From positions 5,546 to 69,545 of the forward strand of contig JBGPFE010000017.1 of assembly GCA_041483135.1 (NCBI GenBank): a DNA stretch of 64,000 nt, read 5' to 3'. Positions within the stretch are counted from its first letter, which is position 1; each line of letters begins with the position of its first letter. Source of the stretch: Gammaproteobacteria bacterium (lineage in GTDB: Bacteria; Pseudomonadota; Gammaproteobacteria; Burkholderiales; SG8-41). Below are positions 7,430-35,048 of this stretch, one piece after another. The notes under the pieces were generated by a model. That model was given only the letters and a program-made list of their open reading frames with translations, ran no database searches and had not been told where the DNA came from. The position numbers and the translations under genes are program-made.

Positions 7430-7440
7430 CGCCCGTCGCC

Positions 7441-9120: not shown

Positions 9121-9435
9121 TTACTTGCGGGTAATGTAGACGACGAGGCCTTCGGTCGCGATCTCGACGAATTTCTCGCTATAACCCATTTCCTGCAATT
9201 CCCAGCGGAAAGTGTTGCTGAGGCGGGCTTTCTTGTAGACGCCGAGTTTGTGCTGCCGCTTGAACTCGATGGCGCGGCTGAAGGTGTCCTCGAGGATATT
9301 GGTCAATCGCTTTTGCGAAACCTTGCGCTCGCTGCCTTTATCCAGCGCCGGCGGATAGCGCTTGGCGAGTTCCTGCGCCAGGCCCTTGGCGAACGCATCG
9401 ACATCCTTGCCCGAAACTGATCCGAATAAGCCCAT
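9121..9435 (-). CDS. Hypothetical small basic protein (104 aa)
   Basis: Clean ORF with host-like codon usage, last gene of a minus-strand three-gene unit. No recognisable motif. Confidence 0.55.
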   Translation of the reverse strand: MGLFGSVSGKDVDAFAKGLAQELAKRYPPALDKGSERKVSQKRLTNILEDTFSRAIEFKRQHKLGVYKKARLSNTFRWELQEMGYSEKFVEIATEGLVVYITRK

Positions 9436-9461
9436 GGTTTCGCTCCTGTTAGATAATTATT

Positions 9462-10277
9462 TCATTCCTGATTGCCGCCGAACAGCCGTTTCAGCATTCT
9501 GATACCGACACCTGCAGTCTGTGTCAACGGCTCGTGCTTTGGTTCGATCGCGCGGATATCGTAGAGCATCACGTCGCGTTGCACGTTCTGGTCGCCAATT
9601 GCCTCGACCCCGTGAAACGAATGATCGTTCTTGATGAAAGCGAACAGCGAATTCGGCTTGTATTCCATTGTTTTGACCTTCTGAAACTGCTGATGCGGAT
9701 AATGTGGGCCGCCCTGACAGCGAAAAGCGGGGTCGCGCGGCACATAGATCGACGTGCCGAGGTGCTTGCGGGTATCATCATCGGGGCAATAAAACAGCAT
9801 CGACAGCAGGCGGTGCGGCGCATCGGTATGCGGGCCGATGCTGTAATTGGTCAGATCGCGCACGACGAGCGCATCCACTTCGAAGCTGTAACGATGGTGA
9901 AACAGGTCGCCAAACCTCTGCTTCACATAAAGCTCGAATTTATCGATCATCGCCGTCAGAAAGCGCTCGGTGTGCAACCAGCTTGCGAATTCGGTCCAGA
10001 ATGCACGGCGGTCCGGGGTCAATTTGTCGATGCCGGCCGGGGTGAACGGCAGCACGAAGCGCTCCGGATATGCGCCTTTGGGAACACGTCCGGTGTCGGC
10101 GAGACTGATTAAGGCCGAGGGATCCGGCCAGTTCGCGCGCAGCGCGGCATAGAAATCGTCGGGAAACACATTTTCCACGTAGATATGCGCGTACGGATAC
10201 TCGCGCATCGGCGCATTTGCGATCTGGTACAGGACGTACTCTTCAACGGCGGAAGACATGGTTTGCGACACCGGCAA
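9462..10277 (-). CDS. 2OG-Fe(II) oxygenase-like protein
   Basis: Possible HxD...H facial triad (SIGPHTDAPH ... DHSFHGVEAI). The N-terminal YPYAHIYVENVFPDDFY resembles cupin-type dioxygenases found in glycan-modification loci. Confidence 0.55.
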   Translation of the reverse strand: MPVSQTMSSAVEEYVLYQIANAPMREYPYAHIYVENVFPDDFYAALRANWPDPSALISLADTGRVPKGAYPERFVLPFTPAGIDKLTPDRRAFWTEFASWLHTERFLTAMIDKFELYVKQRFGDLFHHRYSFEVDALVVRDLTNYSIGPHTDAPHRLLSMLFYCPDDDTRKHLGTSIYVPRDPAFRCQGGPHYPHQQFQKVKTMEYKPNSLFAFIKNDHSFHGVEAIGDQNVQRDVMLYDIRAIEPKHEPLTQTAGVGIRMLKRLFGGNQE

Positions 10278-11073
10278 ACGCGCCCTCGGTGCGAACCGAG
10301 CGTTTCACCTGATCCTGTGAATAGCTGAATCCGAGTTTTCCCATATCCAAAATCAAGGCCCGGTGTTCCTTCAGGTTGGTATTGATTTCGATCAGCACCG
10401 ATTTTACCTTAGGATCGGCCAGCACGCTGCGGCAGCCCGCCAGCACCTTGTGCTCGAGGCCGTCGACATCGATCTTGATGTGGTCCGGTACCGGTACGAT
10501 GCCGGCGCCGACCAGATGATCAAGCGTCGTCGCGATGCATCCTTGCGCAATCGCGGACGGGCGCGGTTGGAGCTTAAAATCGAGTTCCTCGCCGAAGGTG
10601 TGAATCGACCCGCCGGTTACAAACTCACTGAGATACAGGAGCGAGAATCGGGTCTCGTCGGATAAAGCGGCGCAATAGCCGACAACTCGCTTGGAAAGCT
10701 TGTTCCGGACGATATTCTGATAGAGTATCGCGTAGTTTTGCGATTCAGGCTCAAAGGCATAAACGCGCGCTGCGCGCGTCATTGCGGCCCAGATCGTATA
10801 CATCCCGACGTTGGCGCCGATGTCGATCAGCACCTCGTCCGGTTTGAATCCGGCAATCCATTCAATCGTATCCGGTTCTTTGGTAAAAAAAGTATCGACG
10901 CGCCAGCGTGTTGCATAATTCGGCGTGGCAAACGCGATCTCGACGTCGTTGTGCCTGATGATCGCCGAATGAATTTCCGATTCCGGGGCCGCTGCCGGCT
11001 TGGCTTGCGCGCGATTAGCAGGCACCTCAGCGTGCCGGCGAAATGGCCACAACAAGATCCGGAAGATATTCAC
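10243..11073 (-). CDS. FkbM-family methyltransferase
   Basis: LIDIGANVGMYT, VYAFEPESQNYAIL, IKIDVDGLEHKVLAG are FkbM-type motifs. GTG start; 3' end overlaps the downstream oxygenase-like gene. Confidence 0.85.
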   Translation of the reverse strand: MNIFRILLWPFRRHAEVPANRAQAKPAAAPESEIHSAIIRHNDVEIAFATPNYATRWRVDTFFTKEPDTIEWIAGFKPDEVLIDIGANVGMYTIWAAMTRAARVYAFEPESQNYAILYQNIVRNKLSKRVVGYCAALSDETRFSLLYLSEFVTGGSIHTFGEELDFKLQPRPSAIAQGCIATTLDHLVGAGIVPVPDHIKIDVDGLEHKVLAGCRSVLADPKVKSVLIEINTNLKEHRALILDMGKLGFSYSQDQVKRSVRTEGAFAGVANHVFRR

Positions 11074-11253
11074 TGGAACGATCCGGCGGTGAGGGGATGC
11101 GGGTGGCGCGCAGCGCGGGTATTCCGCCGCGCAGCAGCGAGGTTTTCTTAAAAAAATGAATCGGTTACATTATCATGTTGGAACGATTACCGAGTCAATA
11201 GCACGCGGCTTCCTGTAATATGCAGCTGCCAACCGTATGCCTGCGCCTACATT

Positions 11254-12999
11254 GTGATGCTTAGCAATTTGTTGTTGCGCATCTTCGGGCGCGCGGCCCG
11301 CGTCAAGGCGGCTGGCCGCCAGGCCGTCGACGAATGTCTGCAGCAGGGATATCGCAGCCAGCAGGCGGGAGAGCAGGCGGCGGCTGAGCGCTGCTACCGG
11401 CGTGCGCTCGAACTCGATCCCGGCAATGTCGACGCGCATTATCTGCTCGGGGCCCTGCTCGGTCAGACTGGTAATCTCGCCCGAGCGGCAGCACACCTCG
11501 ATCAGGCGCTCGCCCTCAAATCCGATTTCGCCGACGCGCACGCCGCACGCGGCAACGTGTTGCTGCTGCTGGACCATCGGCAAGCTGCGGCCGCGAGCTA
11601 TGAGCGGGCGCTCCGCCTTGATCCCGGCCACGCCGCGGCGCATTTCAATCTGGGGTTGATTCAGCAGGGCGCCGGCGAACACGCTGAGGCGCTGGGGCAT
11701 TTTGAGCGTGCCTATGCGCTGGCGCCGGACCTTCCCGATCTGCTGAAAAACCTGACGCTGCTGCAAATCGAGTTCGAACGCTTCGACGCAGCCGAGTCCG
11801 CGCTGCAACGGGTGCTGGAGCAGGAGCCGCAACACTATGATGCGTTAAAGTGCCTGGGACTCACGCTGCAGAAAATGCACCGCCCGGAGCGGGCGCTTCA
11901 ATACTACCTCAGGGCAAGCGCGCTTGACGGCGCTGACGCAGAACTGCTCAATAACCTGGGCATCGTGCTGCAGGATCTCGGGCGGCTCGATGAGGCAATT
12001 GCAAGCTACGATGCGGCCATCGCGCTCAAGCCCGATTTCGCGCTGGCGATATGGCACCGTTCGCTGGCATATCTGCTGCAACACAATTTCACACGCGGCT
12101 GGCCCGACTACGAGTTGCGGTTGATCAGCGCCGAGCAGCCACGGCGCCCGATCCAGTTTCCGCGCTGGGATGGGACCGCGCTGGCCGGCAGAAAGATACT
12201 CGTGTTCGCGGAACAGGGTTTGGGCGACGAAATCATGTTTGCGTCGTGTCTGCCGCAGGTAATCGCCGCGAGCGCACACTGTGTGATCGAGTGCTCGGCC
12301 AAGCTCGAGACGATATTCCGGCGCTCGTTTCCCGCCGCCACCGTTTACACGGCGAGCGCGGATCGGACGCTGCCGCAGAGCGTGCGCGACGCGGGTATCG
12401 ACGTCCAGCTCCCGATCGGGAGCCTGCCGCTGCACCTGAGGAGGAGTCGCGCAGACTTCCCCCGACATGAGGGTTATCTCAAGGCCGACACCGTACGGGT
12501 CGCCGATTGGCAGGCACGGCTCGCAGCGCTGGGACCAGGCCTGAAGGTGGGCGTTTCCTGGTGCGGGGGCACGGCCAGGTCACGCCGTCCGGTGCGCTCT
12601 ATCCCGCTGGCGCAATGGCTGCCGATTATGCAGGTCGGGAACGCGCACTTCATCGACCTGCAGTACACTGACTGTCGCGCTGAAATTGATGCGTTGCGGG
12701 CCGCAACCGGGGTGCGCGTCCACAGCTGGGAAGAGGCGCGCGCTGATTATGAGCATACGGCTGCCCTGGTTGCGGCGCTCGACCTCGTCATCGGCGTGTG
12801 CACAGCGGTGATTCATCTCGGCGGCGCGCTGGGCAGACCGGTCTGGGTGATGGCCCCGTTCAGCCCGGAATGGCGCTACGGAATTGCTGGCGAAACCATG
12901 CCTTGGTATCCTTCCGTGCGCGTGTTCCGGCAGCCGGTATATGGCGCCTGGGATGCGGTGATCAACGCAGTGGCACAATCCCTGCGAGGGATGGCTTAA
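11254..12999 (+). CDS. TPR-repeat protein with C-terminal GT9-like (heptosyltransferase-fold) glycosyltransferase domain, paralog 1
   Basis: N-terminal TPRs (ALELDPGNVDAHYLLG.., ALRLDPGHAAAHFNLG..). C-terminal domain has ILVFAEQGLGDEIMFASCLP (compare the LGD..P motif of GT9 enzymes), VGVSWCGG and MPWYPSVRVFRQ. Confidence 0.8.
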   Translation: MMLSNLLLRIFGRAARVKAAGRQAVDECLQQGYRSQQAGEQAAAERCYRRALELDPGNVDAHYLLGALLGQTGNLARAAAHLDQALALKSDFADAHAARGNVLLLLDHRQAAAASYERALRLDPGHAAAHFNLGLIQQGAGEHAEALGHFERAYALAPDLPDLLKNLTLLQIEFERFDAAESALQRVLEQEPQHYDALKCLGLTLQKMHRPERALQYYLRASALDGADAELLNNLGIVLQDLGRLDEAIASYDAAIALKPDFALAIWHRSLAYLLQHNFTRGWPDYELRLISAEQPRRPIQFPRWDGTALAGRKILVFAEQGLGDEIMFASCLPQVIAASAHCVIECSAKLETIFRRSFPAATVYTASADRTLPQSVRDAGIDVQLPIGSLPLHLRRSRADFPRHEGYLKADTVRVADWQARLAALGPGLKVGVSWCGGTARSRRPVRSIPLAQWLPIMQVGNAHFIDLQYTDCRAEIDALRAATGVRVHSWEEARADYEHTAALVAALDLVIGVCTAVIHLGGALGRPVWVMAPFSPEWRYGIAGETMPWYPSVRVFRQPVYGAWDAVINAVAQSLRGMA

Positions 13000-13050
13000 G
13001 CCCGGTCAACCCGCATATGCAGAGCGGTACTCACGTCAGCAGAGGCGGTT

Positions 13051-13701
13051 ATGAATTACAGTCGCGCAAACCCGAGCAGTCGATATCTCGATTTGCAAGC
13101 CATGTATCGACAGATGCACCAGCAAGGCGAGCAATTTCTCGGCACACCTCCGGAGAAGACTTTTCCCGGCTTCAGTCTCGACGCCCAGGTCGGGCGGATC
13201 AAGGATCTGGTCGCCCGCACCGGCGCGCAGACCATACTGGACTATGGTTGCGGCAAAGGCCTGCAATATCAGCCGCGGCCGATCAGTGATGGCAGCGGCG
13301 TGCAATGGCCGGGCGTGCTCGATTACTGGGATATCGACGAGGTGGTTTGCTACGATCCATGCTACGGGCCGTACAGCCAGCTGCCGCAGGGCAAGTTCGA
13401 CGGCGTGATTTCGACCGATGTGCTCGAGCACTGTCCCGAGCCGGACGTGCCGTGGATCATCGACGAGATTTTCGGTTACGCGACACGCTTCGCATTCGCC
13501 AACGTTGCCTGTTACCCGGCGCGCAAAAGGCTGCCCAACGGGGAGAATGCCCACTGCACGATCAAGCCGGTCGAATGGTGGCGGGACCTGGTGCGCGATA
13601 TTGCGTCACGCTATCCGGGAGTGGAATGGGAATTCTGGGTTCAGTTCCAGGCCGATACGGCGCAGGGCAAGCAGTATATCGAGCAGAAGATCAGCGGGTG
13701 A
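13051..13701 (+). CDS. Class I SAM-dependent methyltransferase (216 aa, paralog A)
   Basis: Motif I ILDYGCGKGLQY and VISTDVLEHC. Same length and collinear with the ORF at 21995-22645. Confidence 0.7.
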   Translation: MNYSRANPSSRYLDLQAMYRQMHQQGEQFLGTPPEKTFPGFSLDAQVGRIKDLVARTGAQTILDYGCGKGLQYQPRPISDGSGVQWPGVLDYWDIDEVVCYDPCYGPYSQLPQGKFDGVISTDVLEHCPEPDVPWIIDEIFGYATRFAFANVACYPARKRLPNGENAHCTIKPVEWWRDLVRDIASRYPGVEWEFWVQFQADTAQGKQYIEQKISG

Positions 13702-13795
13702 GCGCGCCGGTGCGTCTATACGCATGCCGCCCGCATGGGCGCAGTCCGGGACTTTATGATGTCGGCCGGCCGTATTAAAGAGTTACGGGCGCCTT

Positions 13796-14380
13796 ATGCA
13801 GAATTCAAAGCAAAAACTTCATCTCGGTTGCGGCAGAACCATCCTCGAGGGCTGGATCAACGTTGACTCTAGGCAGCTGCCCGGCGTCGATGTCGTGGCC
13901 GATTTCGATGATTGCCGAAACACGCCACTGCCGTTCGCAGACAACAGCGTAGACGAGTTCCTGGCCAGCCATCTGATCGAGCATCTGGCGCAGCCGCTGC
14001 CTTTCATGCAGGAGCTGTATCGCATTGCGCGCGCCGACGCGGTAGCGGTATTCAGGCTGCCGTACGGATCGAGCGACGAGGCGTACGAGGACCCGACCCA
14101 TGTCCGCCAGTATTTTCTCAATTCGTTCGGGTATTTTTCACAGCCGCATTACTGGCGCGCCGATTACGGTTATCGGGGCGACTGGGAAACTGAGACGATA
14201 ACACTGCGGGTGGATGCCGAAAAACACCCTGGAAAAACGTCGGAGCAGATCATGCAGGAAGTGCACACGCTGCGTAACGTGGTGCGCGAGATGGTCGTGG
14301 AGTTGCGGGCGATCAAGCCGCCGCGCGCGCCCAAAGCGGAGCTGCAAAAAGGCTGCCGCATCAACATCAAGCTCGTCTGA
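13796..14380 (+). CDS. Class I SAM-dependent methyltransferase (Methyltransf_11-like)
   Basis: KLHLGCGRTILEGWINVD and DNSVDEFLASHLIEHL. Stop overlaps the next start (TGATG). Confidence 0.75.
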   Translation: MQNSKQKLHLGCGRTILEGWINVDSRQLPGVDVVADFDDCRNTPLPFADNSVDEFLASHLIEHLAQPLPFMQELYRIARADAVAVFRLPYGSSDEAYEDPTHVRQYFLNSFGYFSQPHYWRADYGYRGDWETETITLRVDAEKHPGKTSEQIMQEVHTLRNVVREMVVELRAIKPPRAPKAELQKGCRINIKLV

Positions 14381-16239
14381 TGTCGTTGTCCTCGCATATG
14401 CTGGCCAGCTTATTCAAGCACCTGCTCAAACCGGGCGCCGCCCGCCGCCCGCCGGCCGAGCCGGTCGCCAACCGGCTGCTCGCCGCCGTGCGGCTGCAGC
14501 GGGGCGGCGAGCTCGCGCAGGCGGAAGCGATCTATCGCGCGATACTCGAACTTGATCCCGAAAATATCGATGTCCTGCATCTGCTCGGCAATAATCTGTT
14601 GCTGCAGCGCAGACCCGATGAGGCGATCGCGCTGCTGCAGCGGGTGATCGCGGCCCAGCCTGATTGCGCGGAGGCTTTTTACAATCTCGGCGGCGCGTTT
14701 CGCGCAGGCGCTGATCTTGACAACGCGCTGCTCAATTACCGCAAAGCGGTCGAGCTGCGGCCCGAATTCGTCGAGGCCCTCAGCGGCCTTGCCGGCATAT
14801 TAAAAGCCGTGGGCAGTTACGATGAAGCCGAAACGTGCTATCGCAGGGCGCTTGCACTCAATCCCGATTTCGCGGAGGCACACTATAACTTCGGCAATCT
14901 GCTTCATCTCATGGGCCGGGTGGATGACGCGATTGCAAGCTACCGCCGCGCCATTGCGATCAAGCCGGATTTCGTGACGGCGCACAGCAATCTGATTTAC
15001 GCGCTCAACTTTCATCCGGGTTACGAACCGCGCACGGTATTTGAGGCGCATCTCGAGTGGGCGCGCCGGCACGCCGAGCCGCTTACGCGATTGGCGGCGC
15101 CGCATCGCAACACCCCGCTCGCAGAGCGACGCCTGCGCGTGGGCTATGTTTCTCCGAATTTCAGGGACCATGCGGCGGCTTATTTTTTCGAGCCGGTGCT
15201 GGTCCATCACGACCCGCAGCTGTTCGAGATCGTCTGTTATTCGGACGTGGCGCGGCCGGATGCGCTTACGCAGCGGCTGCGGCAATATCAGGCGGAATGG
15301 CGCGATTGCACGCATCTCGACGATCGGGCGCTCGCGGAGCTGGTGCGCCGGGATGCGATCGACATTCTGGTCGATCTGACCGGGCATACCGAGAATAACC
15401 GGCTGCTGGTGTTCGCGCGCAAACCGGCGCCCGTGCAGGTGACCTGGAATGGCTACGCCAACACCACCGGCATGTCGGCGATCGGCTACCGGGTCAGCGA
15501 CGCCTACGCCGATCCGCCGGGCACGACCGAGCACTTGCATACTGAGCGCCTGGTGCGGTTGCCCGGCATCTATATGGCTTTCCGCCCCCCGGGCGACAGT
15601 CCGCCGGTGGGTGAGTTGCCGTGCGAGCGGACGGGCTATGTGACTTTCGCGTCGTTCAATGCGCTGGCCAAGATCACGCCACACGTGGTCGCTCTGTGGG
15701 CGCGCATTCTGAGCGCGGTTCCCGCTGCGCGGCTGATGATGGCGACAGTCCCGATGGGCAGCGCCCGAGAGCGTGTTGCGCAGATGTTCGCCGAACAGGG
15801 CGTGGATACCGCGCGACTTGAATTGCACGGCAGATTACCGTTCCAGGAATTTCTCGCTCTACACCAGCGCGCGGACATCGCCCTCGACCCGTTTCCGTTT
15901 CACGGCACCACCACAACCTGTCATACTTTATGGATGGGGATCCCGGTGATAACGCGCGCGGGCGCGAGCCACGTGTCCCGGGTCGGGGTGAGCATGCTGT
16001 CCAATCTCGGACTTGCGCGCCTGATTGCGCAATCTGACGACGAATACGTGGAAATCGCCAGGTCGCTCGCGGCGGATCTGCCGGGACTCAACAGCCTGCG
16101 CAGGAGCTTGCGTAATCGTTTGCTGGGCGCCCCGAACACCGATGGCCTGAGGCTCACGCGCCACCTTGAGTGCGCTTATCGCGATATGTGGCGCGCCTGG
16201 TGCCGCACGCAGAACGTCGACGTTGCAGGGCAGACATGA
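14380..16239 (+). CDS. TPR-repeat protein with C-terminal GT41/SPINDLY-like (O-GlcNAc-transferase-type) domain, paralog 1
   Basis: TPRs, then RVGYVSPNFRDHAAAYFFEPVL, ILVDLTGHT, PAPVQVTWNGY..TTG, YVTFASFN, LDPFPFHGTTTTCHTLWMGIPVIT. Confidence 0.8.
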   Translation: MSLSSHMLASLFKHLLKPGAARRPPAEPVANRLLAAVRLQRGGELAQAEAIYRAILELDPENIDVLHLLGNNLLLQRRPDEAIALLQRVIAAQPDCAEAFYNLGGAFRAGADLDNALLNYRKAVELRPEFVEALSGLAGILKAVGSYDEAETCYRRALALNPDFAEAHYNFGNLLHLMGRVDDAIASYRRAIAIKPDFVTAHSNLIYALNFHPGYEPRTVFEAHLEWARRHAEPLTRLAAPHRNTPLAERRLRVGYVSPNFRDHAAAYFFEPVLVHHDPQLFEIVCYSDVARPDALTQRLRQYQAEWRDCTHLDDRALAELVRRDAIDILVDLTGHTENNRLLVFARKPAPVQVTWNGYANTTGMSAIGYRVSDAYADPPGTTEHLHTERLVRLPGIYMAFRPPGDSPPVGELPCERTGYVTFASFNALAKITPHVVALWARILSAVPAARLMMATVPMGSARERVAQMFAEQGVDTARLELHGRLPFQEFLALHQRADIALDPFPFHGTTTTCHTLWMGIPVITRAGASHVSRVGVSMLSNLGLARLIAQSDDEYVEIARSLAADLPGLNSLRRSLRNRLLGAPNTDGLRLTRHLECAYRDMWRAWCRTQNVDVAGQT

Positions 16240-16916
16240 TGATCAGGGTTTTCATCGGCTACGATACCAGAGAAGCAGTCGCATTCAGCGTGCTCGCCTA
16301 CAGCATCCACGCGCGCGCGTCGGCGCCGGTCGCGATCACGCCGGTGATGTTGAGCGAGCTGACAAGCGTACTCACGCGCGCGCGCCATCCGCTGCAGTCC
16401 ACGGATTTTTCATTTTCACGTTTTCTGACGCCTTTTCTCTCGGATTACGCCGGCTGGTCCATCTTCATGGATTGCGACATGCTGGTGCTCGACGACATCG
16501 CCAAGCTCTACGCGTTGCGCGACGACCGTTTTGCCGTCATGGCGGTCAAACACGACCACGTGCCCAAGGAAAACAGGAAATTCCTGGACCAGCCGCAGAC
16601 CGCCTACCAGAAGAAGAACTGGTCGAGCGTGATGCTGTTCAACAACGCCAAATGCCGTGCGCTGACGCCTGAATACGTGAATACGGCATCGGGGCTCGAG
16701 CTGCATCAATTCAAGTGGCTCGCCAATGACGACTTGATCGGCGAGATACCCGGCCGCTGGAATCATCTGGTCGGCTACAATCCGCCGCGCCGGGACGTTT
16801 CTCTGGTGCATTACACGCTGGGCGGCCCGTACTTCAACGAGTATCGCGATTGCGAGTATGCCGACGAGTGGCGCCGCGAGCAGCAGGCGATGCTGCGCGT
16901 TGATCAGCGCAAGTGA
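16236..16916 (+). CDS. GT8-like glycosyltransferase
   Basis: ATGA overlap with the upstream stop. RVFIGYD..EAVAF, FSRFLTPFL, DxD-type MDCDMLVLDD, HYTLGGPYF. Confidence 0.65.
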   Translation: MMIRVFIGYDTREAVAFSVLAYSIHARASAPVAITPVMLSELTSVLTRARHPLQSTDFSFSRFLTPFLSDYAGWSIFMDCDMLVLDDIAKLYALRDDRFAVMAVKHDHVPKENRKFLDQPQTAYQKKNWSSVMLFNNAKCRALTPEYVNTASGLELHQFKWLANDDLIGEIPGRWNHLVGYNPPRRDVSLVHYTLGGPYFNEYRDCEYADEWRREQQAMLRVDQRK

Positions 16917-16970
16917 TTTGATGCCGCAAGCGGCACGCCGCGGGCGGGGCGCGGGCGGCTGACCGGAACC

Positions 16971-18551: not shown

Positions 18552-18603
18552 TAGGGATCAGGCAGCGGTAACCCCGGAATCGCATTCTGGAAAGGCTGGT
18601 CTT

Positions 18604-20331: not shown

Positions 20332-20573
20332 AGCATTTGTTTAGAATCGGGCGGACCCTTACTGGCAAGAGTTCCCGGATGTGCCTTGATTGGGAGGCCG
20401 TGTAACGGACGAATGCGGATTTGCCTGTAACGCGCGTACCCGCAGCTTGATAATGCATAAATGTGACCAAGCGGGATTGGTGAGACAATTGACAGGATCC
20501 CGATTCCCGTAAAGCAATAAATGCCCCGAAATATTTGCGACCCGGTGCGTCGCTTGCCAGGCGTTCAGATCAG

Positions 20574-21896: not shown

Positions 21897-21994
21897 TGCG
21901 GGTAGCGGGAGGCGAAGCGTGGCAAGGATTTTGTACGGGGTTGCGCACGGCTGGAGCCTAGAGTTGTTGATAGGGTGGACCAGGATCGATTCGA

Positions 21995-22645: not shown

Positions 22646-22661
22646 AGGCAGGCCGGTTGCC

Positions 22662-26116: not shown

Positions 26117-26155
26117 GGGTGCGTTGGTGAATCCATTGGCGCAAGGGGCCGCGGC

Positions 26156-27760
26156 ATGAGCCTCGGCGAGTGGCTCACGGCGCTGCTGCGTCGCGTTGGC
26201 GCGGGCCGACAGCCTGCTCCGGCTGCCGTCGAGGCGTTGCCGGTATTGCTGCCGGACGAAGAAAAAGACCGCACCGCGAGCGCCGCTTTTGATGCGGGTA
26301 AAGCGGCGTTCCGGGCCAAAGACTATGCCACGGCGATCGATTGCTTCAAAACGGTGATCGAGCTGCGGTACGACGATGCGGATGCCCACAATTATCTTGG
26401 CCTAAGCCATCTTGAGCAGGGCGCCCATGAAGACGCCGCCGACTGTTTTTTGCTCGCGATCCATTACCGCCCGCAGTTTCCGCAAGCGTTCTATAACATG
26501 GCGCTGGCCGCGCACCGGCGCGGGGATCTTGCGCAAGCTGTTACCTGCCTCGAACAGGCAATCAGTCTGAAACCGGATTTTGCCGGCGCCTACAGCACCC
26601 TTGGCTACTTACTGAGCCACCAACTCGGTGACTTTGCACGCGGCGCCGAGCACATCAGGACGGCGTTGCGGCTGAGCCCGACCGATCCCGATGTGCTTTG
26701 CAACTACGGCATGGTGCTCACGCAGGAAGGACGGCCGGAGGAAGCGCTCGCGATTTGCGACCAGCTTCTTGCCGCCCATCCGGATATGCACGAGGCGCGC
26801 CTGAACCGCGCGCTGGCCGCGCTCAAGCTGGGTCGTTTTGCCGAGGCGTGGCCCGATTACGAGGCGCGCAAGCTTGCGCGCGGCAATTACATGCCCCGCG
26901 CGCTGCCGCTTCCAGAGTGGCGGGGGCAGCTGCTGCGCGACAAAAAGCTGCTGGTTTATGCCGAACAGGGTCTCGGCGACCAGATCATGTTCGCTTCCTG
27001 CCTGCCCGACTTGCTGCCGCAGGTTGGCGGTTGCGTGGTGGAGTGCACGCCGCCGCTGGTGCCGATTTTCAGGCGCTCCTTCCCGACCGCGCGGATAGAG
27101 TCCCAGGCGCAAGGTGATGCCAGACTGGCCAGCCTGGTGCAATCCGCGCGCTTTGATTATCAAGTTGCGATCGGCAGCCTGGCCGGATATTTCCGCAGGG
27201 ACCGGGCCGAGTTTCCGCTGCACGCGGGCTACCTGCATGCGGATGCTGCGCGGGTTGCTTACTGGCAAGATCGCCTGAGCGCATTGGGCCCGGGCCTGAA
27301 AGTCGGAATCTCGTGGTTCGGCGGGGCAGCCTCAACCCGTCGCGATACCCGCTCGATGCACTTGCAGGATTGGCTGCCGCTGCTGGCGCAACCCGCGTGT
27401 TGTTTTGTCAGCGTGCAATACGGCAAAGTGAATAGTGAGCTGGCAACGTTGTCACGCGCGCACCGGGTTAAAATTCACGCATGGGGTGAAGCAATTGACG
27501 ACTACGACGAAACGGCGGCGCTGGTGACGGCGCTCGATCTGGTGATCTCGGTTCAAACTGCGATCGTGCATCTGGCGGGGGCGCTCGGCAAACCCGCCTG
27601 GGTCATGCTGCCGGCGGCGTCCGAATGGCGTTATCTGGAGCGCGGCGATACGATGCCATGGTATCCGAGCGTGCGTCTGCTGCGCCAGCCGCGACTCGGC
27701 GACTGGCAACCGGTCATCGCACGCGTCGCGCAGGACCTCGCACAATACGCAAGGCGCTAA
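26156..27760 (+). CDS. TPR + GT9-like glycosyltransferase, paralog 5
   Basis: LLVYAEQGLGDQIMFASCLPDL, VGISWFGG, MPWYPSVRLLRQ. Confidence 0.8.
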   Translation: MSLGEWLTALLRRVGAGRQPAPAAVEALPVLLPDEEKDRTASAAFDAGKAAFRAKDYATAIDCFKTVIELRYDDADAHNYLGLSHLEQGAHEDAADCFLLAIHYRPQFPQAFYNMALAAHRRGDLAQAVTCLEQAISLKPDFAGAYSTLGYLLSHQLGDFARGAEHIRTALRLSPTDPDVLCNYGMVLTQEGRPEEALAICDQLLAAHPDMHEARLNRALAALKLGRFAEAWPDYEARKLARGNYMPRALPLPEWRGQLLRDKKLLVYAEQGLGDQIMFASCLPDLLPQVGGCVVECTPPLVPIFRRSFPTARIESQAQGDARLASLVQSARFDYQVAIGSLAGYFRRDRAEFPLHAGYLHADAARVAYWQDRLSALGPGLKVGISWFGGAASTRRDTRSMHLQDWLPLLAQPACCFVSVQYGKVNSELATLSRAHRVKIHAWGEAIDDYDETAALVTALDLVISVQTAIVHLAGALGKPAWVMLPAASEWRYLERGDTMPWYPSVRLLRQPRLGDWQPVIARVAQDLAQYARR

Positions 27761-27762
27761 GC

Positions 27763-29322
27763 GTGCTCTGGACAGTCATAAAGCGCATCACCCGCGAAGC
27801 ATTGCGCGCCCCGGATGGAGACTTGCGTGATGGCGCGTTAAAAGCGGGTATCGCATGTTTGAATGCCGGTAAGCTTGATGACGCGCGACGGCATTTCAGT
27901 GAGGCGCTTGCCGCGGCGCCCGGGAATTTCGATGCATTATTCCATCTGGGGTTGACCGAAGCGCGTAGCGGGCACCTGGATGCCGCGCAGCAGTTGCTGG
28001 AAGCGGCGCGCGCGCGGCGTGACGACGCGGGCGTGCACAACGCGCTCGGCAATATCCATCGCTTGCGCGGGCAGTTGGATGCGGCGGTGGCGGGCTACCG
28101 ACGGGCATTAGAATTGGACGGCGAGCATATCGCCGCTCTCGTGAATCTCGGTCTCTCGTTGCGCGATCAGGGTGATCCTGAACAGGCGCTGCCCATTCTC
28201 GAGCACGCGCTGCGGCTTGCGCCTGATCATGTTGACGCGCTATTCAACACGGCGCTTGCATCGATCGATACCGGCGCGAGCGAAGCCGCCTACGTCCTGC
28301 TCGGACGGGTGCTCGAGCTCGATGCAGATCATGCCGAAGCTCACACGCAGCGCGGATTTCTGCTTCTCAGGCGCGGCGATTTCGCCGCAGGGTGGCGCGA
28401 ATATGCGTGGCGTATGCGCGCCCCTGACTGGGGCGCCCAAGCGCAATACTCGTATCCGCATTGGCAGGGTGAGTCATTGTCCGGGAAAAGCGTGTTGGTG
28501 AGGGCGGAGCAGGGATTAGGCGATCAGATCATGTTCGCGTCATGTCTGCCGGAGGTGCTGTCTCAAGCGCGGCATACTGTTATCGAATGTGACCCGCGGC
28601 TTGCCGGATTGTTCGCGCGATCCTTCCCTGCCGCCGCAGTTTACCGCTATCGCGTGAGCGGCGAGCCCGACTGGCTGCCGGAACAGGCACCGGATTTCCA
28701 GGTCCATGGCGGCAGCCTGCCGGGCGTTCTGCGTAATCGCACCGCAGACTTTCCGCGTCACAGGGGTTACCTCGTGCCCGATCCTGCGCGCGTTGCCGCA
28801 TGGCGTGCACGGCTTGCCGCACTCGGCCCCGGACTCAATATCGGCATCGCCTGGCGCGGCGGCACACCGCGCACGCGCCAGGCGGCGCGCTCGCTTACGC
28901 TCGATACGCTGTTGCCTATCCTGTCGCTGCCGCAAGCGAATTTCGTATCGCTGCAATACGATCCGAGCAGCGATGAGATCACAACTCAACGCGTGCGCCA
29001 CGGCGTCACGATCCACGAATGGCCGCAGAAAATTGCCGATATGGACGAAACGGCGGCGTTGGTCGCGAGCCTGGATCTCGTGATCACGGTGTGCACGACG
29101 GTTGCCCATATGAGCGGCGCGCTTGCTAAAACAGCATGGGTTATGGTACCTGTGGTCGCGGAATGGCGTTATCTCGAGCGCGGCGTGACGATACCGTGGT
29201 ATCCGGCGCTGCGTCTGTTCCGCCAGCAGCGGCGCGGTGAGTGGAGCGACGTGATAGCGGCAGTGCACGCGGAGCTGCAAGATTGGGCCGGCACGCCCGG
29301 CGCCAGGACGCGAGACGCGTAG
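27763..29322 (+). CDS. TPR + GT9-like glycosyltransferase, paralog 6
   Basis: GTG start 2 bp after the upstream stop (VLWTVIKRITRE). VLVRAEQGLGDQIMFASCLPEV, IGIAWRGG, IPWYPALRLFRQ. Confidence 0.75.
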   Translation: MLWTVIKRITREALRAPDGDLRDGALKAGIACLNAGKLDDARRHFSEALAAAPGNFDALFHLGLTEARSGHLDAAQQLLEAARARRDDAGVHNALGNIHRLRGQLDAAVAGYRRALELDGEHIAALVNLGLSLRDQGDPEQALPILEHALRLAPDHVDALFNTALASIDTGASEAAYVLLGRVLELDADHAEAHTQRGFLLLRRGDFAAGWREYAWRMRAPDWGAQAQYSYPHWQGESLSGKSVLVRAEQGLGDQIMFASCLPEVLSQARHTVIECDPRLAGLFARSFPAAAVYRYRVSGEPDWLPEQAPDFQVHGGSLPGVLRNRTADFPRHRGYLVPDPARVAAWRARLAALGPGLNIGIAWRGGTPRTRQAARSLTLDTLLPILSLPQANFVSLQYDPSSDEITTQRVRHGVTIHEWPQKIADMDETAALVASLDLVITVCTTVAHMSGALAKTAWVMVPVVAEWRYLERGVTIPWYPALRLFRQQRRGEWSDVIAAVHAELQDWAGTPGARTRDA

Positions 29323-29368
29323 TGATCAGGTCAGGCATTCGCGTGCCGATTCATGTACGAGGGGGCAC

Positions 29369-30142
29369 ATGCTGAAAAGTCTGCTGCAGCAGGTATGGAA
29401 TAGTATGCGCGGGGCGGGCGCGGCTGGTCCGGCGCCGGGCGCGAATGTGCAGCAGACTCCCCGCGAGGCGCAGGAAGCGTTACTTGCGTTGCTGCGCGCA
29501 CCGATGCCGCATCCCAAGCGTATCGACTATGAGATGGTCGCATGGCTGCTGGCGTCGTCGAGCTCGGCGGAGTATCTGATACAGCGAATGATGAGCGCGG
29601 AAAACTTCGTGCATGCCGGCCCGCTGCTCGATTTTGCTCTTGAGCGGTGCACGCTGGACGGCTTGATCATGGAGTTCGGCGTTTTTCGAGGCGCGTCGCT
29701 GCGCGCGATCGCACGACGCGTTACGCAGGAGGTCCACGGTTTCGATTCGTTCGAAGGCCTGCCGCGGGACTGGACTTATTTCCAGAAGCAGGGAAGATTT
29801 TCGCTGCAAGGACAGGCGCCACAATTCGAGGAAGCCAACATCCGCGTGCATCAAGGATGGTTCGACCAGACGTTGCCGCCATTTTTAGCGCAGCATCCGG
29901 GGCCGGCGCGTTTTATTCATATCGATTGCGACATTTACGCCTCTACTCGCACGGTGCTGGAGTTGCTCAAACCGCGCATCGTCAGCGGCACGGTGATCGT
30001 ATTCGACGAATATCTAAATTATCCGGGATGGCAACAACACGAGTACAGGGCGTTCCAGGAGTTTGTGGCACAGGCCGGGATAGCCTATCGCTACATCGGC
30101 TTTGCTTCTTCGGACTACGCGGTGGCGGTCCAAGTGGCATGA
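29369..30142 (+). CDS. TylF/MycF-type (macrocin-O-methyltransferase-like) SAM methyltransferase
   Basis: MEFGVFRGASLRAIA, FDSFEGLP, IHIDCDIYASTRTVLE. Confidence 0.8.
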   Translation: MLKSLLQQVWNSMRGAGAAGPAPGANVQQTPREAQEALLALLRAPMPHPKRIDYEMVAWLLASSSSAEYLIQRMMSAENFVHAGPLLDFALERCTLDGLIMEFGVFRGASLRAIARRVTQEVHGFDSFEGLPRDWTYFQKQGRFSLQGQAPQFEEANIRVHQGWFDQTLPPFLAQHPGPARFIHIDCDIYASTRTVLELLKPRIVSGTVIVFDEYLNYPGWQQHEYRAFQEFVAQAGIAYRYIGFASSDYAVAVQVA

Positions 30143-30342
30143 GTTGCGGATCACTGCCCGGCAGGTTACTGCACCTGACGCTAAACGTCAGGATTGGTCG
30201 CTTTATAGCAGGCCAGGCGATATTGCGGCGCAGCAACGCCACCGTGTCCTTTTCACATTGTGGCAAATAGTCCGGGTATCTCGTCGAGCAAGGTTAAATG
30301 GGTGATTTGCCGCAGGATGGAAAGCGCGTTAGAGCGTAAAGC

Positions 30343-30355
30343 GGCACACAGTGCC
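30343..30355. promoter_or_regulatory. Palindrome GGCAC-N3-GTGCC, possible enhancer-binding-protein site upstream of pilin gene 1
   Basis: Perfect 5-bp inverted arms (ggcacacagtgcc) about 100 bp upstream of the sigma-54 element at 30446. The distance fits a bEBP upstream activating sequence. Confidence 0.3.
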
Positions 30356-30445
30356 TGCGCCGGGTCGTTTTCAAGCCGGTGTGGCGAGTCGCATTTGTGC
30401 ATCCTGGCTATTGATAAATAAGGAGAAAACCGGGTTTCTTAAGAA

Positions 30446-30461
30446 TGGTATGGAACTTGCT
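30446..30461 (+). promoter_or_regulatory. Candidate sigma-54 promoter of pilin gene 1
   Basis: TGGTATGGAACTTGCT has GG-N10-GC spacing and fits TGGYAY-N5-TTGCW. It ends about 65 nt upstream of ATG 30527. Confidence 0.6.
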
Positions 30462-30526
30462 GCAGGTCTATGTGCAAGTTCTAAAATTGCTGTTTTTGGC
30501 GCTTGTAACTTCTTAAGGAGATTTTC

Positions 30527-30946
30527 ATGAAGCGTATACAACGGGGTTTCACCCTGATTGAATTGATGATCGTGGTGGCGATCATCGGTATTCTGGCGGC
30601 GGTCGCGCTGCCGGCGTATCAGGACTACACCATCCGTGCGAAGGTGACAGAGCTAGTGCTGGCGGCGAGTGGCTTCAAAACCACGATTGCCGAGAAATCG
30701 CAGTCCGACGGCACGCTGGCAAGTGCCGGTGTTGGCTTGACGGTAACAAGCGGCGGTCGAATCATTACTGGCAGCGTAACTACCGCAGGTTTGATTACCG
30801 TCATCGGTTCGTCTACGACGCTCGGCACCGACGTGACGATCATACTGACGCCGTCGATCAACCCCGGTGGACGTATCGCGTGGCAATGCGGAACCGGCAA
30901 TACCACATCGACGTTCAAGTATGTGCCGGCCGAATGCCGTCACTGA
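30527..30946 (+). CDS. Type IVa pilin (major-pilin type), copy 1
   Basis: Class III signal peptide MKRIQRG|[27 protein letters not shown] (G-1, F+1, E+5). C-terminal Cys pair WQCG...PAECRH. AAGGAG ribosome-binding site at 30515-30520. Confidence 0.95.
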
Positions 30947-30990
30947 TACTTGGTTTGCGGGATCCGGTGCAGGCTGCCGGTTGAGACAGA

Positions 30991-31024
30991 CAGCCCCTCC
31001 TCGCGAGGGGCTGTTTGTTTTCTC
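30991..31024 (+). terminator. Rho-independent terminator after pilin gene 1
   Basis: CAGCCCCTC-ctcgc-GAGGGGCTG stem followed by TTTGTTTTCTC. Confidence 0.7.
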
Positions 31025-31059
31025 TTGCGTTGCATTGAGTAATTTTCAAACGATCAGGC

Positions 31060-31075
31060 TGGCACAGGCCTTGCA
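31060..31075 (+). promoter_or_regulatory. Candidate sigma-54 promoter of pilin gene 2
   Basis: TGGCACAGGCCTTGCA is a perfect TGGCAC-N5-TTGCA. It ends about 48 nt upstream of ATG 31124. Confidence 0.75.
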
Positions 31076-31123
31076 CTGACCATAATAACAACGAGTTTCT
31101 CAAACGGGGCGGGAGTGGTTGCA

Positions 31124-31543
31124 ATGAAAAGAGCGCTTAAAGGATTTACTCTCATCGAGTTGATGATCGTGGTCGCGATTATTGGCATCCTCGCGTCAGT
31201 CGCGTTACCTGTTTATACCGATTACACCATCCGCGGCAAGGTTTCAGAGCTGGTCATCGTGGCAGGCAATTTCCGCACGACTATCGCGGAAAAAACGGCT
31301 ACTGACGGGACCTTGGCGAGCGCGGGGCTCGGCCTTACCGTCACCTCCGGTGGTCGAGTTATTACCGGCAGCATTACTACCGCAGGCGTGGTAACTATCA
31401 TCGGTTCGGCAACGACGATCGGCACCGACGTGACGATCATATTGACGCCGTCTTTAAACGCCAACGGGCGTGTCGCGTGGCAATGTGGCACTGGCGCCAC
31501 TACATCGACCTATAAGTTTGTGCCTTCCGAATGCCGGCATTGA
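31124..31543 (+). CDS. Type IVa pilin, copy 2
   Basis: MKRALKG|[28 protein letters not shown]-terminal WQCG...PSECRH. Same mature length as copy 1. GGGAG ribosome-binding site 8 nt upstream. Confidence 0.95.
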
Positions 31544-31603
31544 GCCGGCGCGTAGCCGCGTATAAACGAATTCGGATTGGCGTCTGCCATTGCGCGAAGC
31601 CGG

Positions 31604-32503
31604 TCAGCCTGCGCGTTTCACGAACGCCTGATTGTATGGCGTCAGATTTAGTTTGAGGCCGTATTCGCGGCAAAACTCTTCCAGTGCCTGACGCGCGCCC
31701 GGCCAGTCGTAGTCGTCGCTCGCAATGATGCCGCCCGTCGCAAGACGGGGATAAAAGTATTCGAAGCTCTCGAGGGTTGGATCGTAGAGATCGACATCGA
31801 CGTGCACGAACCGGTATTTGCGCTCCGGCAGCCCCTGAAACGTCAGTGGAATCCAGCCCGGGTGGAACTCGATGTCCGGAAACTCGCCGAGATTGCGCTT
31901 GACCTGCTCCAAGCCCGCGGCGAACGCACCCTGGACGCACATAGACCTGACCTGCTTGGCGCGTTCGAATCCATCCGGAACCTCGTCTTCCAGCGTCGGT
32001 GCGCTCAAGCCCTGAAAGGAATCGAAAATGCGGTATCCAGCGCCGCGATATGCTGGATCGCGCTTGTGTAAATAACTGCACATCAAGTACGACGACAGTC
32101 CCTGGTAGCATCCGCATTCGGCAACGTCTCCGTCAACCGAATGCGTTTCCGCCAGCAGTTGAGTCAGTACACGGAACCTTGCCCGTCGCTGAACCGGCCA
32201 CGGCCGTGACGTAGTGGCGCGCAGCGCCTGGAGGTAAATCGGTTCATATTCGGCCTCGTCGTTATCCGGCTGCAGGGCGACGAAATCACTGAAAGCCGCA
32301 TACGACTCTTCGAACCGCCGCTGGCGGTACAGCATTTCCATCAGCTTTTCGTGGTACGCCGCCTCGGCGGGGAAAGATTGCACGAGCCGGCGGTAGATGA
32401 ATTCTGCCTGTTGGTAGTGTTTGTTTTTCTCGTGCCCGAGAGCGGTCTTGATCGCTTCGGCAACGGGCATTCCGTTCATTGGCTTGCAGCCCCCAAAGAG
32501 CAA
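31604..32503 (-). CDS. TPR-like N-terminus fused to TylF-type SAM methyltransferase
   Basis: DVAECGCYQGLSSYLM, FDSFQGLS, VHVDVDLYDPTLESFEYF. The N-terminal ~90 aa are helical-repeat-like. Start is uncertain (Met at 32503, 32479 or 32470). Confidence 0.75.
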   Translation of the reverse strand: MLFGGCKPMNGMPVAEAIKTALGHEKNKHYQQAEFIYRRLVQSFPAEAAYHEKLMEMLYRQRRFEESYAAFSDFVALQPDNDEAEYEPIYLQALRATTSRPWPVQRRARFRVLTQLLAETHSVDGDVAECGCYQGLSSYLMCSYLHKRDPAYRGAGYRIFDSFQGLSAPTLEDEVPDGFERAKQVRSMCVQGAFAAGLEQVKRNLGEFPDIEFHPGWIPLTFQGLPERKYRFVHVDVDLYDPTLESFEYFYPRLATGGIIASDDYDWPGARQALEEFCREYGLKLNLTPYNQAFVKRAG

Positions 32504-35034: not shown

Positions 35035-35048
35035 GTCCGTTCCTCCTC

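Follow-up and report, generated by a model that had tools for sequence, protein, structure and literature searches.

The stretch of DNA analyzed here, a 64-kb window of contig JBGPFE010000017.1 (assembly GCA_041483135.1), carries between positions 9121 and 32503 an island in which glycosyltransferase and methyltransferase genes run up to two type IVa pilin genes. All coordinates are those of the window, which is identical to the public metagenome-assembled contigs GCA_041491195.1 and JGI 3300052992, and gene starts were fixed from the calls on these contigs. Open reading frame (ORF) listing and Pfam searches bore out the inventory drawn up in an earlier note on this DNA. The island encodes six fusions of tetratricopeptide repeats (TPRs) to a GT9-like glycosyltransferase domain, hereafter T9 proteins, two TPR-GT41 fusions, a relative of GT8 enzymes, a GT2-FkbM fusion, six more methyltransferases, a weak relative of the 2-oxoglutarate (2OG)-dependent oxygenases, and two type IVa pilins (Table 1). 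The note had omitted the first gene of the island, o104.

Organization of the island

The island is bounded by a GAF-HD-GYP gene (7441-9099) on one side and by soxB (32620-34374) on the other. It starts on the minus strand with o104, G3, and G4, followed by a 19-kb same-strand array that runs from G5 to G18 in numerical order and then by pilA1 and pilA2, toward which G21 is transcribed convergently. Neighboring genes in the array mostly overlap or are separated by less than 100 bp, with a single gap of 242 bp preceding G12.

By hydropathy, no transmembrane-grade hydrophobic segment is present in any island protein other than the pilins, in agreement with the earlier description of the enzymes as soluble. 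Genes for nucleotide-sugar synthesis, priming transferases, flippases, and oligosaccharyltransferases were found neither in the island nor among the flanking ORFs scanned, a scan that left out about 45-49 kb of the window. These ORFs encode signaling proteins, sox functions, and housekeeping functions, with no glycan-export function among them. In addition, tblastn with PglL, Wzy_C, and TfpW-like queries gave no match to a Wzy_C or GT-C membrane protein in the window. The reported lack of lipid-carrier machinery in the island was thus confirmed and extends to the flanking ORFs scanned.

Table 1. Genes and sequence elements of the island, in window coordinates; locus counts refer to the 76 related loci described in the text
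Feature	Position	Strand	Assignment	Evidence and remarks
o104	9121-9435	-	Soluble, 104 aa, predicted to form a four-helix bundle	Core partner of the first T9 gene (G5)
G3	9462-10277	-	Weak 2OG-Fe(II) oxygenase relative	Forms an optional cassette with the FkbM gene; in 23/76 loci
G4	10243-11073	-	FkbM-family methyltransferase	PF05050, E 3e-12
G5	11254-12999	+	TPR + GT9-like; core T9	Paralog type always beside o104; TPR by Pfam, C-terminal domain paralogous to the modeled one
G6	13051-13701	+	Class-I methyltransferase-like, 216 residues	Methyltransf_23/25/11 sub-threshold; ILDYGCGKG motif; in 27/76 loci
G7	13796-14380	+	Class-I methyltransferase	PF08241, 29.5 bits, above cut-off
G8	14380-16239	+	TPR + GT41 (SPINDLY/OGT-type)	PF13844, E 6e-48
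G9	16236-16916	+	GT8-related	DxD motif; PF01501, E 5e-4, sub-threshold; in 42/76 loci
G10	16971-18551	+	TPR + GT9-like
G11	18520-20331	+	TPR + GT41	PF13844, E 5e-46; GTG at 18604 is the likelier start, judged by where G10 ends and by the N-terminal peptide
G12	20574-21896	+	GT2 + FkbM fusion	PF00535 + PF05050; start as called on the identical public contig
G13	21995-22645	+	216-residue paralog of G6
G14	22662-24446	+	TPR + GT9-like	PF01075, 23.0 bits, just over the cut-off of 22
G15	24446-26116	+	TPR + GT9-like	Alternative start GTG at 24431
G16	26156-27760	+	TPR + GT9-like	Source of the modeled C-terminal domain
G17	27763-29322	+	TPR + GT9-like
G18	29369-30142	+	TylF-type O-methyltransferase	PF05711 + PF13578
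Sigma-54-like -24/-12 element	30446-30460	+	TGGTAT-N5-TTGC	Upstream of pilA1; two mismatches
pilA1	30527-30946	+	Type IVa pilin	PF07963 + PF00114; NCBIfam
Terminator-like hairpin	30997-31010		Separates pilA1 from pilA2	After pilA1
Sigma-54 consensus element	31060-31074	+	TGGCAC-N5-TTGC	Perfect match; about 50 bp upstream of pilA2
pilA2	31124-31543	+	Type IVa pilin	77% identical to pilA1
G21	31604-32503	-	TylF-type O-methyltransferase, short TPR-like N-terminus	PF05711, E 7e-20; called start gives 291 aa and an end at 32479

The T9 domain is predicted to adopt a GT9-like GT-B fold

The six T9 C-terminal domains, of about 310 residues each, are 47-52% identical to one another and share about 70 invariant positions, among them an EQGxGD motif (an N-terminal GxGD) and a C-terminal H-x-x-G-A-L-G. 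Across the six paralogs, this domain is better conserved than the TPR part. By sequence the link to GT9 is only marginal. PF01075 (GT9) matches four of the six proteins at E 5e-5 to 5e-3 over spans of only 30-50 residues, with G14 alone over the gathering score and the other three at 16.5-18.3 bits; G16 and G17 gave no PF01075 match at E <= 0.01, and the NCBIfam heptosyltransferase I model scored 16-18 bits against a cut-off of 185. Classing the domain by sequence only was abandoned, as a profile search of the Protein Data Bank (PDB) returned spurious matches (CHMP1B, E 0.04) and no glycosyltransferase.

We therefore rely on structure prediction for what the earlier note had called a GT9-like domain. 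The C-terminal domain of G16 was modeled with AlphaFold2 from a 57-sequence alignment (predicted local distance difference test score, pLDDT, 93.6; predicted template-modeling score, pTM, 0.92). When the model was compared with known structures using Foldseek, ranks 1-10 were taken by WaaF, the GT9 protein 3tov, WaaC, and TibC (E 4e-7 to 4e-5; template-modeling (TM) scores 0.5-0.62), the top match being WaaF (1psw, E 4e-7, TM 0.62). The T9 domain thus appears to have a GT9-like GT-B fold; its membership of the GT9 family proper is not established. Plant NAD(P)H dehydrogenase-photosystem I (NDH-PSI) supercomplex subunits (9grx_1 and 7wff_a, TM 0.53-0.57) also occur among the structural neighbors and presumably share this fold.

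WaaC, WaaF, and TibC are accordingly the closest relatives by fold, and T9 shares their GxGD and H-x-x-A-A-x-G motifs. However, T9 is only 10-16% identical to these proteins and carries a TPR part, and lipid A-Kdo (3-deoxy-D-manno-octulosonate) is an unlikely acceptor. The bacterial autotransporter heptosyltransferases (BAHTs) TibC and AAH are dodecameric, have an iron-finger Cys cluster, and lack TPRs. T9 differs from them on both of the latter counts: only two Cys are invariant, with no sign of the iron-finger cluster of TibC, and TPRs are present. At the position of the GT9 "DTG" motif, the six paralogs have D, Q, or C, which suggests that they may differ in donor use.

Assignment of the other enzymes

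By sequence, G8 and G11 are unambiguous SPINDLY/OGT (GT41) homologs, as had been proposed. Both match PF13844 far above the cut-off of 25 bits (163.8 and 157.4 bits, respectively) and have multiple TPR families at E < 1e-20 placed N-terminal to the catalytic domain. Against PDB sequences, G8, on which this search was run, matched SPINDLY (E 4e-145), the Thermobaculum OGT 5djs (1e-115), and XcOGT (1e-42), as well as human OGT. The NCBIfam model for NGT matched G8 weakly (E 5.5e-9). Characterized members of the GT41 family glycosylate proteins directly.

The assignment of G9 to GT8 is less firm, with a PF01501 score of 20.0 bits against a cut-off of 24.3 and no informative match among PDB sequences. 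A D-C-D motif is visible, and a protein from a flagellar locus described below (L083), for which a PF01501 match is on record, shares 39% identity with G9 (E 1e-52). Methyltransferase assignments are clear for the GT2-FkbM fusion, the FkbM protein, and the two TylF proteins; among the class-I enzymes, G7 exceeds the threshold, and the paralogs G6 and G13, both with the ILDYGCGKG motif, remain below it. For G3, no Pfam match at standard thresholds and no PDB sequence match was obtained. Nine of its 14 orthologs match PF13640 weakly (best E 4e-4, all under the gathering score), and H150-x-D152, H222, and R234 are invariant among the orthologs.

Ten enzymes share an amphipathic N-terminus

Ten enzymes with four catalytic folds among them, namely the eight TPR-glycosyltransferases, the TylF protein G18, and the FkbM protein G4 (gene starts 11073 on the minus strand, 11254, 14380, 16971, 18604, 22662, 24431, 26156, 27763, and 29369), carry at the N-terminus a cationic amphipathic peptide of about 12-15 residues, after which comes an Ala/Pro/Gly-rich linker. 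Their hydrophobic moments of 0.57-0.97 exceed the mean of about 0.42 in 22 control proteins (Mann-Whitney p = 3.6e-5). Orthologs of G16 keep the peptide (MSILxWLxxLLPR) and vary in the linker. The peptide also occurs in three of the four enzymes examined in a Methylococcus pilin locus (two of three T9 proteins and the GT41 protein), and it is absent from two flagellin-locus T9 proteins.

A shared sequence motif was considered and discarded: a position-specific matrix built from the G16 orthologs found only G16 in the window, and what the peptides seem to have in common is physicochemical character and not a fixed motif. We also rejected a Tat or Sec signal peptide, as the N-termini have no hydrophobic core, charges fall inside the candidate h-region, and the twin arginines are not conserved in orthologs. 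The peptide may instead tether the enzymes to the membrane or to a common scaffold.

The pilins and their promoters

Both pilins have the features of type IVa pilins, including a class III signal peptide (G-1/F+1/E+5, with the sequence RGFTLIELM), a hydrophobic alpha1-N, a C...C pair near the C-terminus as in the disulfide loop of such pilins, and matches to PF07963, PF00114, and TIGR02532. Their globular parts contain 30% Ser+Thr and 45-46% Ser+Thr+Gly. The 64-kb window contains just two perfect matches to the sigma-54 consensus, and the element upstream of pilA2 is one of them. The element before pilA1 is only suggestive, since a pattern of its stringency, with two mismatches, is at least as common in shuffled sequence as in the window. 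Separate predicted promoters of the sigma-54 type, with a hairpin between the two genes, are as expected for highly expressed major pilins.

T9 genes adjoin pilin genes across related loci

To place the island in a wider context, we used an alignment of the T9 domain of G5 to fetch 76 distinct loci from species-representative genomes and mapped the window proteins onto them. Features were counted within ±10 kb, and many loci are cut by contig ends. A pilin gene was found in 43 of the 76 loci and a flagellin gene in none, and flagellin was therefore rejected as the local target of close homologs. The earlier note had held that islands consistently flanking flagellin or lipopolysaccharide (LPS)-core genes, never pilins, would speak against its proposal; the close loci display no such pattern. 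Where at least 5 kb of sequence lies beyond the last T9 gene, 27 of 34 loci have a pilin, and the median distance from the end of T9 to the start of the pilin gene is 309 bp. The other partners recur at varying frequency: o104 in 52 loci, a GT8-like gene in 42, an HD-GYP gene in 40, a GAF-MshEN-T2SSE ATPase gene in 37, and a GT41 gene in 25.

The usual order is ATPase, HD-GYP, a divergent o104, one to six T9 genes interspersed with GT8, methyltransferase, or GT41 genes, and one to three pilin genes, often with a convergent GT41 gene. In gammaproteobacteria, the order o104-T9-GT8-T9-T9-pilin-GT41 occurs without the ATPase and HD-GYP genes in Methylococcus capsulatus Texas, in Methylococcus sp. 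Mc7, and in metagenome-assembled genomes (MAGs) labeled Methylococcus sp. and Methylococcaceae. A Methylocaldum MAG has the same o104-T9-GT8-T9 start and reaches a contig edge before any pilin. The gene order is shared with betaproteobacterial MAGs. When the T9 genes were typed by paralog across loci, the one adjoining o104 was always of the G5 type, and the other types varied by locus. The island therefore consists of a conserved core (o104 and a G5-type T9 gene) and a lineage-variable region of T9, GT41, GT8, GT2, and methyltransferase genes, ending at one to three separately promoted major pilin genes. Such a core-plus-variable pattern is typical of surface-glycan loci.

The most constant partner of T9 is o104, which is under strong constraint. 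It has more than 800 homologs, the top 120 of which are at least 80% identical, and is far better conserved than the neighboring enzymes; wherever it occurs in the related loci, it adjoins the G5-type T9 gene. The four-helix bundle is predicted by AlphaFold2 with a pLDDT of 87.7. Neither o104 nor its homologs matched a Pfam or NCBIfam model, and Foldseek found no match to the model in the PDB (best E 0.5).

In Methylococcus sp. Mc7, genes for a GT2 enzyme, a DegT-type aminotransferase, an FdtA isomerase, and an acetyltransferase lie on the pilin/GT41 side (L081:14264-17430). The combination of FdtA, DegT, and acetyltransferase is a hallmark of dTDP-3-acetamido-sugar synthesis, which suggests a dTDP-3-acetamido-3,6-dideoxyhexose donor in this lineage; the window has no such genes. 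The statement that nucleotide-sugar genes are missing consequently holds for the island and not for some of the related loci. The pilin adjacent to the Methylococcus capsulatus T9 genes clusters at ≥90% identity with a "Fimbrial protein" of strain Bath. MCA1510, annotated "Fimbrial protein," is the major pilin detected in Methylococcus capsulatus culture supernatant (PMC4257694). The T9-adjacent pilin may be this protein, to which it is linked by the shared name.

Candidate oligosaccharyltransferases in related loci

The multi-transmembrane ORFs of the 76 loci were scanned and then identified, a few of them having no Pfam match. In two loci (L039 and L049), a PglL gene (PglL_A + Wzy_C + Wzy_C_2) separates the T9 genes from the pilins, and in four (L045, L064, L071, and L078) a TfpO-like Wzy_C protein directly follows the pilin. 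Beyond the pilins of L014 and L018 lies a protein with eight transmembrane segments and TPRs, which we take to be TfpW-like. No oligosaccharyltransferase candidate lies nearby in about 35 of the 43 pilin-bearing loci. Neither a flippase nor a priming transferase was identified among the multi-transmembrane ORFs, with the same few lacking a Pfam match.

In five loci with PilE-like pilins (L014, L016, L017, L018, and L037), the pilins and a single T9 gene are separated by the gene for a membrane protein, about 1015 residues long (e.g., L017:10992-14036), with 8-10 transmembrane segments and a spermine/spermidine-synthase-like domain. In L017, a PAP2-domain membrane protein lies beyond the pilins in place of the TPR-membrane protein.

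Distant T9 genes adjoin flagellin and adhesin genes

A full-library profile search with the T9 domain returned 44,697 clusters at 50% identity with E <= 1e-3, of which 26,180 had E <= 1e-30. Among its members are many giant proteins, 1,000-3,100 residues long, in which two to six TPR-T9 units are arrayed in tandem (in the protein library and in L083, L085, and L088). The domain has no dedicated Pfam or NCBIfam model, and many homologs bear the JGI names "Flp pilus assembly protein TadD" or "PilF." These names, like "TPR repeat protein," reflect the TPR part only.

In one MAG (L083), a 2291-residue protein with four T9 domains and a single-domain T9 protein, five T9 domains in total, are encoded between a flagellin gene and fliD/fliS. 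The same GT8 is present, and a neighboring TPR gene gives a weak GT41-like match. A giant T9 gene follows flagellin and flbT in Azospirillum ramasamyi, in a cluster with pseI, and in Azospirillum lipoferum a T9 gene abuts fliS, fliD, and two flagellin genes. Adhesins are the neighbors elsewhere: a Pseudanabaena T9 gene lies directly after an FHA/TpsA-type adhesin gene (L092:8614-9906) and a Thalassospira one near an autotransporter and a TPR-sulfotransferase (L094:8740-9903), arrangements that echo HMW1C-HMW1 and TibC-TibA. Two T9-T9 fusions were both found in pilin loci resembling that of the window. The recurring neighbors of distant T9 genes are thus exported filament or adhesin proteins, and the flagellins and secreted adhesins among them are themselves proteins that are glycosylated directly in the cytoplasm. 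Flagellins can be glycosylated only in the cytoplasm, and the presence of T9 genes beside flagellin genes therefore constitutes the strongest argument that T9 acts directly on proteins. A literature search combining GT9, TPR, and flagellin returned no papers.

Comparison with known glycosylation systems

To our knowledge, proteobacterial pilin glycosylation has been described only as periplasmic, either by PglL/TfpO, which transfers a glycan en bloc from a lipid carrier, or by TfpW. The island resembles these systems in that accessory genes lie immediately beside pilA and vary between strains. It is nevertheless not a PglL/TfpO/TfpW system, because their defining multi-transmembrane oligosaccharyltransferase is not found in the window and all island enzymes are soluble.

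Functionally, the closest known system is that of Ogt and PilA in cyanobacteria, where PilA glycosylation depends on a TPR-GT41 enzyme that is encoded beside pilA and inferred to reside in the cytoplasm (PMC9306852). As with Ogt/OgtA of Synechococcus elongatus and Nostoc punctiforme, soluble TPR-GT41 enzymes are here encoded next to pilin genes, with two such genes in the window and a GT41 gene convergent with the pilin in several related loci. The present island differs in being known from its genes alone, in its proteobacterial hosts, and in its composition: GT41 enzymes are a minority, T9 proteins dominate with up to six copies, and o104, GT8, GT2, and many methyltransferases are added. The claim that this island would depart from all known routes of pilin glycosylation is accordingly anticipated in part by the cyanobacterial precedent.

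By architecture, the nearest system is FlmG of Caulobacter and Brevundimonas, which we compared by its published description (PMC7591256). Like T9, FlmG is a soluble protein of about 520-600 residues in which TPRs are followed by a GT-B domain of about 300 residues; its TPRs bind the flagellin acceptor and its GT-B domain sets the donor (PMC7591256; bioRxiv 10.1101/2022.03.25.485807). The resemblance extends to distant T9 genes, which have flagellin, flbT, and pseI as neighbors in Azospirillum and flagellin, fliD, and fliS in other loci. In contrast to FlmG, the filament gene next to the island encodes a type IV pilin with a periplasmic globular domain, and the island has no nonulosonic-acid genes.

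Precedents for cytoplasmic modification of exported proteins also exist among adhesins. TibC and AAH glycosylate the Sec-exported surface proteins TibA and AIDA-I in the cytoplasm, HMW1 is glycosylated there by the GT41 enzyme HMW1C before export, and the streptococcal serine-rich-repeat adhesins are modified by GtfA/B and GT8 extenders. The HMW1C/NGT and GtfA/B pathways are, like the route we consider below, stepwise and cytoplasmic, with GT41 initiating and GT8 extending. They differ in using one to a few enzymes without TPRs (HMW1C has an all-alpha domain) and in acting on large adhesins as opposed to a 14-kDa pilin.

A possible cytoplasmic route to a modified prepilin

Taken together, these observations lead us to favor, at a probability of roughly 55%, direct TPR-guided O-glycosylation and methylation of the prepilin by soluble enzymes in the cytoplasm. 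At the cytoplasmic face of the inner membrane, the TPR arrays of the T9 and GT41 proteins would recognize either one another or a prepilin not yet folded or translocated. The GT-B domains of these enzymes would draw on housekeeping pools of nucleotide sugars and place the sugars directly on Ser/Thr residues in the globular part of the pilin. By analogy with FlmG, the TPRs would pick the acceptor and the GT-B domain the donor. The GT8 and GT2 enzymes would extend the sugars, the FkbM, TylF, and class-I methyltransferases would O-methylate them, and the oxygenase-like G3 may hydroxylate a residue or a sugar. The modified prepilin would then be inserted via Sec and assembled into the pilus, with glycosylation preceding Sec as for HMW1C/HMW1, TibC/TibA, and cyanobacterial Ogt/PilA.

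Several points weigh against this proposal. The pilin is a candidate acceptor, taken as such from gene context. The globular domain of a pilin is periplasmic after insertion, and prepilins are generally thought to be targeted by the signal recognition particle, so that the time available for cytoplasmic modification would be short; moreover, the product of ten transferases might be a glycan of too great a bulk to pass Sec. Relatives in GT9, GT8, and GT2 usually act on lipid-anchored acceptors, and tethering by the N-terminal peptide, which fits a membrane-embedded substrate, fits a lipid-linked acceptor equally well. The Ser/Thr richness that the earlier note had stressed is not distinctive, because pilins at related loci, which fall into three type IVa subtypes, contain 14-24% Ser+Thr. 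Most of the 76 loci belong to related MAGs of Burkholderiales, and it was the G5 domain that served to retrieve them; their counts are hence not independent, and inherited synteny could account for part of the association between T9 and pilins. A pilin is missing from seven of the 34 untruncated loci, and the T9 contexts in Ralstonia, Burkholderia thailandensis, and Granulicella are uninformative. Finally, the candidate periplasmic transferases described above lie beside the pilin or between T9 and pilin in eight related loci (two PglL, four Wzy_C, and two TPR-membrane proteins), and in most T9-pilin loci, which lack an oligosaccharyltransferase in cis, one might possibly be encoded in trans.

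The alternative that best withstands the evidence, which we nonetheless regard as unlikely, is a lipid-linked route. The amphipathically tethered glycosyltransferases and methyltransferases would build a methylated oligosaccharide on undecaprenyl pyrophosphate; with a priming transferase, a flippase, and a PglL/TfpO-type oligosaccharyltransferase encoded elsewhere in the genome, the glycan would be transferred en bloc to the pilin in the periplasm. The PglL, Wzy_C, and TfpW-like candidates of the eight loci and the presence of amphipathic N-terminal peptides agree with such a route, as does the fact that the nearest structures to T9 are LPS heptosyltransferases with a lipid-anchored acceptor; Pgl-type systems, furthermore, often have their genes scattered around the genome. 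However, neither the multi-transmembrane ORFs of the 76 loci (a few being without a Pfam match) nor the parts of the window that were scanned yielded an identified priming transferase, Wzx, or ABC exporter, and most of the pilin-bearing loci are without a nearby oligosaccharyltransferase candidate. Lipid-linked assembly is not known to involve TPR-glycosyltransferase fusions, every characterized GT41 enzyme glycosylates proteins, and the T9 and GT8 module recurs in the flagellin locus L083, where a periplasmic route is impossible.

We consider it less probable still that the pilin is only a neighbor, the array occupying a hypervariable hot spot next to pilA. Its enzymes would then target other proteins, such as flagellin or adhesins encoded elsewhere, or cytoplasmic or pilus-machinery proteins in an O-GlcNAc-like form of regulation. 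Distant T9 genes do flank flagellins and adhesins, seven untruncated loci are without a pilin, and the core of o104 and G5-type T9 is retained next to pilins served by dedicated periplasmic transferases of their own. The synteny with the upstream ATPase (37/76) and HD-GYP (40/76) genes could likewise point to a regulatory target. Against this, the same adjacency of a TPR-glycosyltransferase gene and pilA has a demonstrated effect on PilA in the case of cyanobacterial Ogt (PMC9306852). In Methylococcus, o104, T9, and pilin stay together in the absence of the ATPase and HD-GYP genes, the spacing of about 300 bp between T9 and pilin is preserved across two proteobacterial classes and three pilin subtypes, and flagellin does not occur within 10 kb in any of the 76 loci.

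That the T9 domains are inactive, degenerate GT-B folds serving as TPR scaffolds or pilus-assembly factors, for which the names "TadD" and "PilF" would be nearer the truth, is very improbable: the sub-threshold similarity to GT9, the names carried by many homologs, and the variable Asp of the "DTG" motif fit such a role, but it is only the TPR part that the names describe, conservation is higher in the C-terminal domain than in the TPRs, with the GxGD and H-x-x-G-A-L-G motifs typical of GT9 among its roughly 70 invariant positions, 26,180 clusters match at E < 1e-30, and T9 co-occurs with GT8, GT41, methyltransferase, and sugar-synthesis genes.

Direct cytoplasmic modification of the prepilin can be extended to a fuller picture, which as a whole we consider rather unlikely. 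A membrane-tethered assembly line in the cytoplasm would act on the major prepilin in beta- and gammaproteobacteria, including Methylococcus capsulatus, with o104 as an adaptor or holdase and the N-terminal peptide as a docking signal. T9 would then be a surface-protein O-glycosyltransferase family of at least 26,000 clusters, re-targeted among pilins, flagellins, and adhesins by exchange of its TPRs.

If cytoplasmic glycosylation of the prepilin is correct, proteobacteria would have a second, cytoplasmic route of pilin glycosylation, extending the single precedent of cyanobacterial Ogt and raising the question of how a glycosylated prepilin passes Sec. The hypothesis is testable in Methylococcus capsulatus, which is cultured and whose major pilin is already detectable in the culture supernatant. 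T9 is one of the larger uncharacterized glycosyltransferase-like families and occurs repeatedly beside pilins, flagellins, and adhesins; assigning its function would lead to re-annotation of tens of thousands of entries named "TPR repeat protein," "TadD," or "PilF." Modular enzymes in which TPRs determine the acceptor and a GT-B domain the donor would also be attractive for glyco-engineering.

Neighboring genes and base composition

The region upstream of the island (108-9099) encodes a PP2C phosphatase, an FHA protein, a CHASE2-nucleotide cyclase, a class-II-type cyclic nucleotide phosphodiesterase, a 795-residue GAF-MshEN-T2SSE ATPase, and the GAF-HD-GYP protein. In L086 and L087, all of this signaling block but the FHA gene is found in synteny with the island. 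The ATPase gene is not followed by pilC or pilD, and its product may be a second-messenger-gated pilus motor. Directly after the island (32620-36782) lie soxB, a cytochrome c gene, a soxA-type gene, soxZ, and soxY, and the lineage is therefore probably a sulfur-oxidizing betaproteobacterium. Synteny of soxB was seen in 19 of the 76 loci, and the adjacency of sox genes and island looks like no more than that.

An integration hot spot linked to a tRNA gene, as at Pseudomonas pilA, was considered and rejected, since the window contains no tRNA gene. The GC content falls to 0.567 at 20001-22000 and to 0.555 at 30001-32000, compared with about 0.60-0.64 elsewhere in the island. These dips coincide with the GT2-FkbM gene and with the pilin genes, a hint that the low-GC segments were exchanged more recently.

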